Of a stretch of 17,986 nt of DNA, positions 4,806-4,876 are shown piece by piece. The DNA is from a virus. Taxonomy: Duplodnaviria; Heunggongvirae; Uroviricota; Caudoviricetes. Positions within the stretch are counted from its first letter, which is position 1. Each line of letters starts with the position of its first letter. The notes below the pieces were generated by a model that worked only from the letters and a program-made list of their open reading frames with translations, was not told where the DNA came from and made no database searches. The position numbers and the translations under genes are program-made. The stretch lies in IMG/VR virus record IMGVR_UViG_2667528065_000005; one strand, given 5' to 3'.

Positions 4806-4876
4806 GGGAATAAGTGAGATATTTATGGGAAGAACTGGGTCAAAATGGGAAGAGACTAGGAGGAATATGCAATAAC
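4806..4876. repeat. Spaced imperfect direct repeats (GGGAAnA / ATGGGAAGA.ACT.GG) near the prophage end; candidate transposase-binding end repeats
   Basis: Read directly: gggaataag about 4807, atgggaagaactgggtc 4825-4841, atgggaagagactagg 4845-4860, aggaatatg about 4861, at roughly 16-20 bp spacing within 100 bp of the junction. Confidence 0.3.

Follow-up and report, generated by a model that had tools for sequence, protein, structure and literature searches.

The point at which the host gene adiC gives way to prophage DNA is closely followed by several short direct repeats of a GGGAA type, which raises the question of what such repeats do at the end of a phage genome. A sequence-only reading had proposed that they are end sites bound by the transposase of a transposable phage. 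We analysed them in the window, by which we mean the whole stretch of 17,986 bp, and in the ends of related phages and prophages. Three things could be told apart in the window: a mutated terminus, likely transposase sites and a separate phased array.

The repeats at the adiC junction recur every 10 bp

As had been reported, GGGAA-type repeats were present near the adiC junction, at 29-88 bp from the end of adiC homology (4777). There are three copies of GGGAA, at 4806-4810, 4827-4831 and 4847-4851, and a shorter GGAA at 4862-4865. The 9-mer ATGGGAAGA was found at 4825 and 4845, 20 bp apart, these being its sole exact copies in the window; when one mismatch was allowed, it had 5 matches window-wide against 3.6 expected, that is, no enrichment. 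Two of the repeats had been extended to units of about 16 bp. This extension (ATGGGAAGAACTGGG versus ATGGGAAGAGACTAGG) holds with one indel, but the unit really consists of two adjacent boxes, its 'ACTGGG' portion being an intermediate box, TGGGTC at 4836. A spacing of 16-20 bp had also been put forward; the underlying period is instead 10 bp, with TGGG at 4826, 4836 and 4846. The phased pattern TGGG-N6-TGGG-N6-TGGG matched once in the window (4826-4849), against 0.01 matches expected from 200 shuffles.

The repeats lie in the left end of a Bcepmuvirus-like prophage

The following features identify the element and its junction with the host:

4268-4777, plus strand: 5′ fragment of host adiC, truncated by the prophage (Pfam AA_permease; alignment to intact adiC)
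4778-4781, no strand: GAGG, neither adiC nor conserved phage end (intact adiC continues GTATTTGG; in relatives host DNA lies directly against TG)
4782, plus strand: outermost nucleotide of the prophage at its left end; all relatives have T, and the G found here turns 5′-TG into GG
4945-5334, minus strand: mor (middle operon regulator), with no further gene between it and the left end (Pfam Mor, E = 1e-43; annotation of an identical gene)
8787-9992, minus strand: AAA+ transposition ATPase, B-like (AAA_22; BcepMu08 homologue)
9964-11733, minus strand: intact DDE (rve) transposase of 589 aa, of the BcepMu/B3 (Tn552-like) type (rve only in Pfam)

From 4783 the minus-strand prophage genes run in the order mor, gemA, gam, ATPase, transposase, DUF3102 protein and two small HTH proteins, and a CI-type repressor follows on the plus strand. 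The early operon, with its Tn552-like rve transposase and AAA+ ATPase, is inverted and directed outward to the end, mor being its last gene. An outward-pointing early operon is the layout of BcepMu and B3, unlike that of Mu (PMC5977238). The same arrangement, with late genes beyond it, was found in the complete prophage of E. coli 4/1-1 (NZ_CP023844.1), and Escherichia phage PhiKM, which is classified in Bcepmuvirus, is 100% identical over 4783-5400. Identity of the transposase to its counterparts is 98.8% (PhiKM), 68.5% (BcepMu) and 56.8% (B3). The BcepMu enzyme is annotated as Tn552/IS1604-like, and the KS10 paper (PMC2628397) describes it likewise. Judged by homology, a Bcepmuvirus-like transposable prophage has inserted in adiC, and the stretch is the left end of this prophage, on the mor side. 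As such it is an ordinary representative of a phage type that is known and widespread.

On the host side, the arginine-dependent acid-resistance locus adiA-adiY-adiC (546-4777) has decayed independently of the prophage: adiA is split (546-2351 and 2811-2972), adiY is split (3311-3568 and 3663-3983), and an 11-bp tandem duplication in adiC, TCGGTGCGCTG at about 4420-4441, shifts the frame. On the prophage side, a low-GC insert of 2.2 kb (13755-15970) separates the repressor from a Dam methylase; the closely related E. coli 4/1-1 prophage lacks it. Its genes specify an NA37 nucleoid-associated protein (PF04245, E = 1e-80) and a 401-aa protein with no Pfam match and a weak KwaA-like PADLOC match (E = 8e-5), the sole PADLOC result for the accessory genes. 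This insert may be accessory or defence cargo.

The terminus of the window copy is mutated

Identity to intact E. coli adiC stops at 4777. To locate the phage terminus, we compared the junction with those of relatives at independent insertion sites, which read host|TGATTAGAC (21 aligned sequences, one of them a contig starting inside the end). In five E. coli genomes the same end is adjoined by ycaL, rimK, rayT, irp2 and cysE, and it always starts with 5′-TGATTAGACTTGAG. Fifteen further Enterobacterales relatives start with TG, 13 of them with TGAT, while two Brenneria sequences diverge after TGA or TG; the contig of one further relative begins inside the end, and the terminus is not visible there. 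Relatives thus have 5′-TG...CA-3′ termini directly flanked by target DNA, and the window has instead GAGG-GG (4778-4783), its junction reading ...GCCG-GAGG-GGATTAGAC, with a T to G change at 4782 and four extra bases. The earlier remark that the usual 5′-TG was not obvious at the junction is correct, because the terminal T is a G at 4782 and GAGG precedes it at 4778-4781. By analogy with Mu, transposition from the left end is probably impaired in the window copy, where the transferred-strand end would read CC and not CA, and this copy may be unable to transpose from its left end. The window spans contig AOQI01000070.1 (assembly GCA_000397365.1) in full, and the right end of this copy lies outside it.

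Because the same end stands at several different host sites, the sequence from 4783 inward is a real transposition end, and the possibility that the repeat stretch is host or unrelated DNA is excluded by the same observation. Of 5426 complete E. coli genomes, 533 carry this left end, and they do so at several sites. In most of the 533 it is one clonal insertion, at the start of ycaL and flanked by the 6-bp target duplication GAAGAA, and O25b:H4-ST131 strains are among these genomes; the other E. coli insertion sites are cysE, rimK, irp2 and rayT. The GGGAA-type repeats, whose offsets counted from the terminus are 25-84, therefore fall in the outermost ~200 bp of a genuine transposition end.

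Two tandem 23-bp units are common to both prophage ends

If the repeats were end sites of the transposase, an inverted copy of them would be expected at the opposite end. What we found at both ends was a different motif, which occupies the first bases of the prophage in the window:

4782-4804, plus strand: first 23-bp terminal unit (L1-like), candidate transposase-binding site, with its core TGAGATAAAT at 4792-4801
4805-4826, plus strand: second 23-bp unit (L2-like), candidate transposase-binding site, with its core GTGAGATATTT at 4814-4824

The opposite end was read in the E. coli 4/1-1 prophage, which matches the window at every one of the 618 bases compared across its left end and mor region and whose insertion made the 6-bp duplication GAAGAA. 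Its right end lies between aroA and a Gin-like recombinase and reads TGATGCGCCGCGCGATAAATGCACTCTATCTTGTGCGATAAATGGCATCC.... The GGGAA repeats are absent from it, and the inverted copy of the GGGAA motif was thus not found. The inverted motif common to the two ends is a pair of tandem 23-bp units with the core G-N-GAGATAAAT at offsets 12-20 and 35-43, which takes the form G-N-G-A/C-GATAAAT in its variants at both ends of the E. coli 4/1-1 prophage, and both termini there are TGAT. In the E. coli-type prophage, in BcepMu and in B3 alike, each end carries this unit at the same offset; in BcepMu and B3/PM105, two units are present at each end and GGGA repeats at the left end only. Inspection and scoring alike gave no GGGA array at the right ends of BcepMu, B3/PM105 and Mu, a single GGGAG at the box-1 offset being found at the BcepMu right end. 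(A further record, that of phiE255, is permuted and differs little from BcepMu, and gave no independent right end.)

The core G-N-GAGATAAAT of the terminal-most site is carried by the units at about 4782-4826 and is absent from the GGGA (YGGGAY) boxes. The tandem units (about 4782-4827) overlap only the first ~20 bases of the stretch in which the repeats had been noted. The proposal that the repeats are transposase end sites was right about the place, since the stretch does lie in the end of a transposable phage and forms part of a conserved cis-acting module there, but it was probably wrong about the motif. Rowland et al. are said to have shown in 1995 that the Tn552 transposase binds two direct 23-bp repeats at each end. 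Because the units stand at both ends, and two direct 23-bp repeats per end are the arrangement in Tn552, the likely transposase sites are those at 4782-4826; from sequence and arrangement, the two tandem units (about 4782-4827) are likely to be the binding sites of the Tn552-like transposase. A possible resemblance of GAGATATTTATGGGAAGAACTGGG to the Tn7 TnsB sites was considered and set aside.

The phased boxes are conserved at left ends

Inward from the two units, the array is made up of four boxes:

4827-4830, plus strand: GGGA box 1, offset 46-49 (G in 23/26, G in 24/26, G in 21/26 and A in 19/26 ends)
4837-4840, plus strand: box 2, GGGT here, offset 56-59 (C55 in 16/26, then G in 21, G in 19, G in 19 and A in 14 of 26)
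4847-4850, plus strand: GGGA box 3, offset 66-69 (18, 23, 19 and 18 of 26)
4857-4865, plus strand: box 4 region, offset 76-84, degenerate here (TAGGAGGAA; TGGATGGAA in close relatives)

The counts come from an alignment of left ends. With the transposase as query, 80 loci were collected, one genome per species, and mor and the end beyond it were located in each. Forty-three ends were recognised, and 26 of them were non-redundant (<85% identity, with transposases down to ~52% identity). These 26 ends, from Enterobacterales, Burkholderia, Pseudomonas, Chromobacterium and others, were anchored without gaps. Information content peaked at offsets 1-3 (TGA), 11-19 (TGAGATAAA), 33-43 (the core of the second unit), 46-49 (GGGA), 55-58 (CGGG), 66-69 (GGGA), 76-79 (GGGA), 87-92 (TG.AAA) and 97-100 (TT.C), and fell to ~0 bits in the spacers between the boxes. 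Within the units, the peak at offsets 11-19 and the near-invariant offsets 33-43 flank weak offsets at 25-27. The first GGGAA of the sequence-only reading (4806-4810, offsets 25-29) is inside the second unit and weakly conserved across the 26 ends; the relatives from Pectobacterium, Dickeya and Brenneria lack it. Box 4, degenerate in the window, is GGGA at offsets 76-79 in 22, 21, 19 and 21 of the 26 ends.

Under a strict 10-bp scheme, 20 of the 26 left ends reached a four-box score of at least 5, a value attained by 0.5% of shuffles. Left ends mostly scored 5-8 and right ends (E. coli-type prophage, BcepMu, B3/PM105 and Mu) 1-2; the left end of BcepMu itself scored 4 under strict spacing. The GGGA array is confined to one end, being missing from the right ends in three family lineages. 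Alignment with the ends of related prophages, which had been named as a check on the repeats, thus bore out that phased GGGA boxes are conserved at left ends. In Klebsiella phage KP12 an extra gene of 330 bp separates mor from the left end, and box 3, a degenerate box 2 and the distal conserved element are still found beside the end (the deposited sequence begins within the GGGA array and lacks the true terminus). Because KP12 keeps the distal boxes despite the extra gene, the module belongs to the end and not to mor.

Between the boxes and mor lie two further features:

4868-4893, plus strand: further conserved end elements, TGCAATAACCTTAC (4868-4881; consensus TG.AAA-N4-TT.C) and AGTATGTGAAAA, offsets 87-100
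4892-4937, minus strand: hairpin just past the mor stop (inverted repeat; -24.8 kcal/mol, z = -5.0, followed by UUUUC)

No shuffle of the hairpin sequence was equally stable, and the hairpin is a probable terminator that would keep early and middle transcription from reaching the end sites. On the minus strand, a sigma-70-like site (4891-4864) would read outward through the boxes; it matches at 9/12 positions, with 0.4 such matches expected by chance. The conserved GTATGTGAAAA that follows TG.AAA-N4-TT.C overlaps this promoter-like site. TG.AAA-N4-TT.C also occurs at right ends (about 7370-7383 in the E. coli 4/1-1 locus L002), nearer the terminus than at left ends by ~18 bp in the E. coli-type prophage and B3 and by ~8 bp in BcepMu, as if the GGGA array had been inserted into the left end. 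An IHF site at TGCAATAACCTTAC (4868-4881) was considered and rejected, as its spacing to TT, judged by eye, is one base off the WATCAANNNNTTR consensus.

A similar array is found in Mu and MuA-type phages

We then asked whether the array accompanies one type of transposase. The left end of Mu, ...ACCGGGAGGACATTGGATTATTCGGGATCTGATGGGATTAGA..., carries CGGGAG, TTGGAT, CGGGAT and TGGGAT between L1 and L2, with G-runs starting at offsets 33, 44, 53 and 63; no such array is present at the Mu right end. Of 69 MuA-type loci from IMG/VR, 38 have the array ~1.2-2.0 kb upstream of A, in most cases at 1.2-1.7 kb, and in each case on the inward strand; the opposite strand gave 0/69 at these loci and control stretches gave 0/138. 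About 21 of the 31 low-scoring loci have <1.3 kb of sequence upstream, with the end missing, and a few have weaker arrays (scores of 4-5) where an array would be expected. Lineages with 47-52% MuA identity are among the 38, some of them with four perfect GGGA boxes, and in a Vibrio Mu-like phage the array stands at offsets 40-73. Two records were set aside: that of Shewanella MuM16-2, which starts inside the repressor gene and holds no left end, and that of a Pasteurella phage, whose start has GGGA every 20 bp and may be trimmed, and which was left out of the count. In phages with ~50% MuA identity, four or five perfect GGGA boxes at 10-bp spacing lie 28-73 bp inside a TGTATAG... terminus, an array more regular than that of Mu.

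MuA matches HTH_Tnp_Mu_1, HTH_Tnp_Mu_2, DDE_2 and Mu-transpos_C in Pfam, and the transposases of the window and of BcepMu match rve only. The array did not covary with the DNA-binding domain of the transposase: it is common to MuA-type and BcepMu/B3-type phages, whose N-terminal domains are unrelated in Pfam, and is in this respect independent of transposase type. Because the array is also found in MuA-type phages with unrelated transposase DNA-binding domains, its recognition by the transposase is disfavoured. Similarly, the array tracks the end and not the neighbouring gene, because in Mu a repressor gene occupies that place and the position of the array is kept.

The array as a candidate packaging signal

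What these phages have in common besides the array is a small terminase of one family. The small terminase of the E. coli 4/1-1 prophage is a full-length Phage_Mu_Gp27 protein (PF11985, E = 1e-56; locus L001, 34100-34645); the terminase genes of the window prophage lie past the window end (17,986), and its link to Gp27 is made via such near-identical relatives. This E. coli-type protein aligns end to end with Mu gp27, and Gp27 is also present in B3-type phages (B3/PM105). D3112, which has a DUF1804 protein in the small-terminase position and no Gp27, has no array; no array was seen at the ends of RcapMu and KS10 either, D3112 being the one clear control with a different small terminase.

Mu DNA is packaged from the left end, with 50-150 bp of host DNA taken in on that side (PMC2837660, PMC5977238). 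The array of the window matches Mu nt 33-66 in motif, spacing and strand. By deletion, the Mu pac site was reportedly mapped to ~nt 32-58 of the left end by Groenen and van de Putte in 1985 and by Harel et al. in 1990, a stretch that would coincide with the Mu YGGGAY array (nt 33-66). In addition, a close relative is represented by a virion-derived contig that reaches 55 bp beyond the left end and stops there, which fits a short flank of host DNA on the pac side, without proving it.

On this comparison of sequences, we consider it somewhat more probable than otherwise that the phased GGGA array is a packaging (pac) signal. The broader proposal, in which four YGGGAY boxes 25-80 bp inside the left terminus form a conserved pac that is read by terminases of the Mu-Gp27 family and is common to both lineages, falls a little short of an even chance in our estimate. 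For the BcepMu-type family, we infer that the small terminase binds the array and that packaging starts at the left end. From the terminus inward, the module consists of 5′-TG (GG here), the two 23-bp units (4782-4826) and four YGGGAY boxes at 4827, 4837, 4847 and ~4857. One helical turn apart and on one strand, the boxes would present the same face of the DNA, which would suit an oligomeric small terminase. A Gp27-type oligomer would bind 4826-4865 and recruit the large terminase, cleavage by the terminase would fall in host DNA slightly beyond the end, and from there the prophage would be packaged rightward by the headful mechanism.

A role in transposition has to be weighed against this. 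The boxes might be extra sites for the transposase or for an accessory transposition protein (the B-like ATPase, the DUF3102 protein, HU or IHF), giving an asymmetric left end as with L2/L3 of Mu and helping to bend that end for transpososome assembly. Taken broadly, this is what the sequence-only reading had proposed. They lie <90 bp from the true end and directly past the two terminal units, and their helical phasing suits protein-induced bending; box 1 abuts the second unit and may belong to a transposase site, and it is at the box-1 position that the BcepMu right end has its GGGAG. Moreover, transposable-phage ends are typically asymmetric in site number (PMC4378225, PMC3145075). We nevertheless regard this role as unlikely, since the boxes are without the GAGATAAAT core that the units carry at both ends, the array is missing from the right ends of three family lineages and of Mu, and the same YGGGAY array occurs in MuA-type phages with unrelated DNA-binding domains. 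It also counts against it that in Mu the MuA footprints cover L1-L3 and are not known to extend over the L1-L2 spacer. HU bends the Mu left end at this same spacer during transpososome assembly, and packaging and transposition-architecture roles of the array could coexist.

The position of the array, between the terminator-like hairpin of mor and the terminus, would also be compatible with a regulatory element at the end of the early/middle operon, either an operator for Mor, GemA, a Ner-like protein or the repressor, or an outward promoter. Mor and GemA are common to Mu-type and BcepMu-type phages, and the sigma-70-like site described above would be read out through the boxes. But the Mu left end adjoins the repressor gene and not mor, with the position of the array relative to the terminus kept; in KP12 the distal boxes and the further element are still at the end despite the extra gene; the promoter-like match is weak; and Mor/C-type activators recognise dyad sites and are not known to bind direct repeats. 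All of this makes a regulatory function improbable. As to whether the repeats are functionless, a product of chance, composition or recent local duplication, the 9-mer with one mismatch is indeed not enriched in the window. Such an origin is nonetheless contradicted by the conservation pattern, in which boxes are conserved and spacers randomised across 26 diverged ends and a second phage lineage, and by the expectation of 0.01 for the phased triple TGGG, and we give it almost no credence.

Significance and relation to known systems

The sequence needs of packaging initiation in transposable phages are poorly defined, and a phased YGGGAY array that recurs, by sequence, in transposable phages that encode Gp27 and have unrelated transposases gives a lead on Mu-type packaging initiation that can be tested. 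If the packaging reading is true, the sequence determinants of this process would be defined, and packaging and transposition signals would be separable modules that recombine at phage ends. The conserved motif offers a target for mutagenesis in Mu and in the BcepMu-like prophage of ~10% of complete E. coli genomes, including the ST131-type ycaL insertion. It could also serve as a marker to orient Mu-like prophages and predict the first-packaged end, hence which flanking host genes are transduced, and it could help in the design of mini-elements that transpose without packaging, or the reverse.

The closest counterparts of the module are the left ends of BcepMu (Bcepmuvirus) and B3/PM105 (Beetrevirus), which have the same order and offsets, with TG, two 23-bp units, phased GGGA boxes and TG.AAA..TT.C, and the same gene order of mor, gemA ... 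B-like ATPase and transposase. Compared with them, the window copy has GG for TG, four extra junction bases, GGGT in box 2 and a degenerate box 4. The Mu left end resembles that of the window in its TG terminus (mutated in the window), a transposase site at the end and four YGGGAY boxes ~30-80 bp in at 10-bp spacing; as in this family, the array is absent from the right end and the small terminase is a homologous Gp27. In contrast, the transposases and their end sites are unrelated (HTH_Tnp_Mu domains and a 22-bp consensus in Mu, rve only and GAGATAAAT units here), one unit precedes the array in Mu and two contiguous units in BcepMu-type phages, and the gene beside the left end is the repressor gene in Mu and mor in BcepMu-type phages, where the early operon is inverted.

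Tn552 resembles this family in arrangement, with two direct 23-bp units per end, TG/CA termini and a related rve transposase, and the 6-bp target duplication seen in one prophage insertion belongs to the same likeness; unlike this phage end, Tn552 is not packaged and would have no reason to carry a pac-type array. The pac site of P1 consists of hexamer clusters that are read by the small terminase. Such pac sites likewise comprise short direct repeats within <100 bp on one side of the cut region, with a presumably oligomeric recognition subunit, but they differ in motif and terminase family, and transposable phages are cut in flanking host DNA, without a concatemer.
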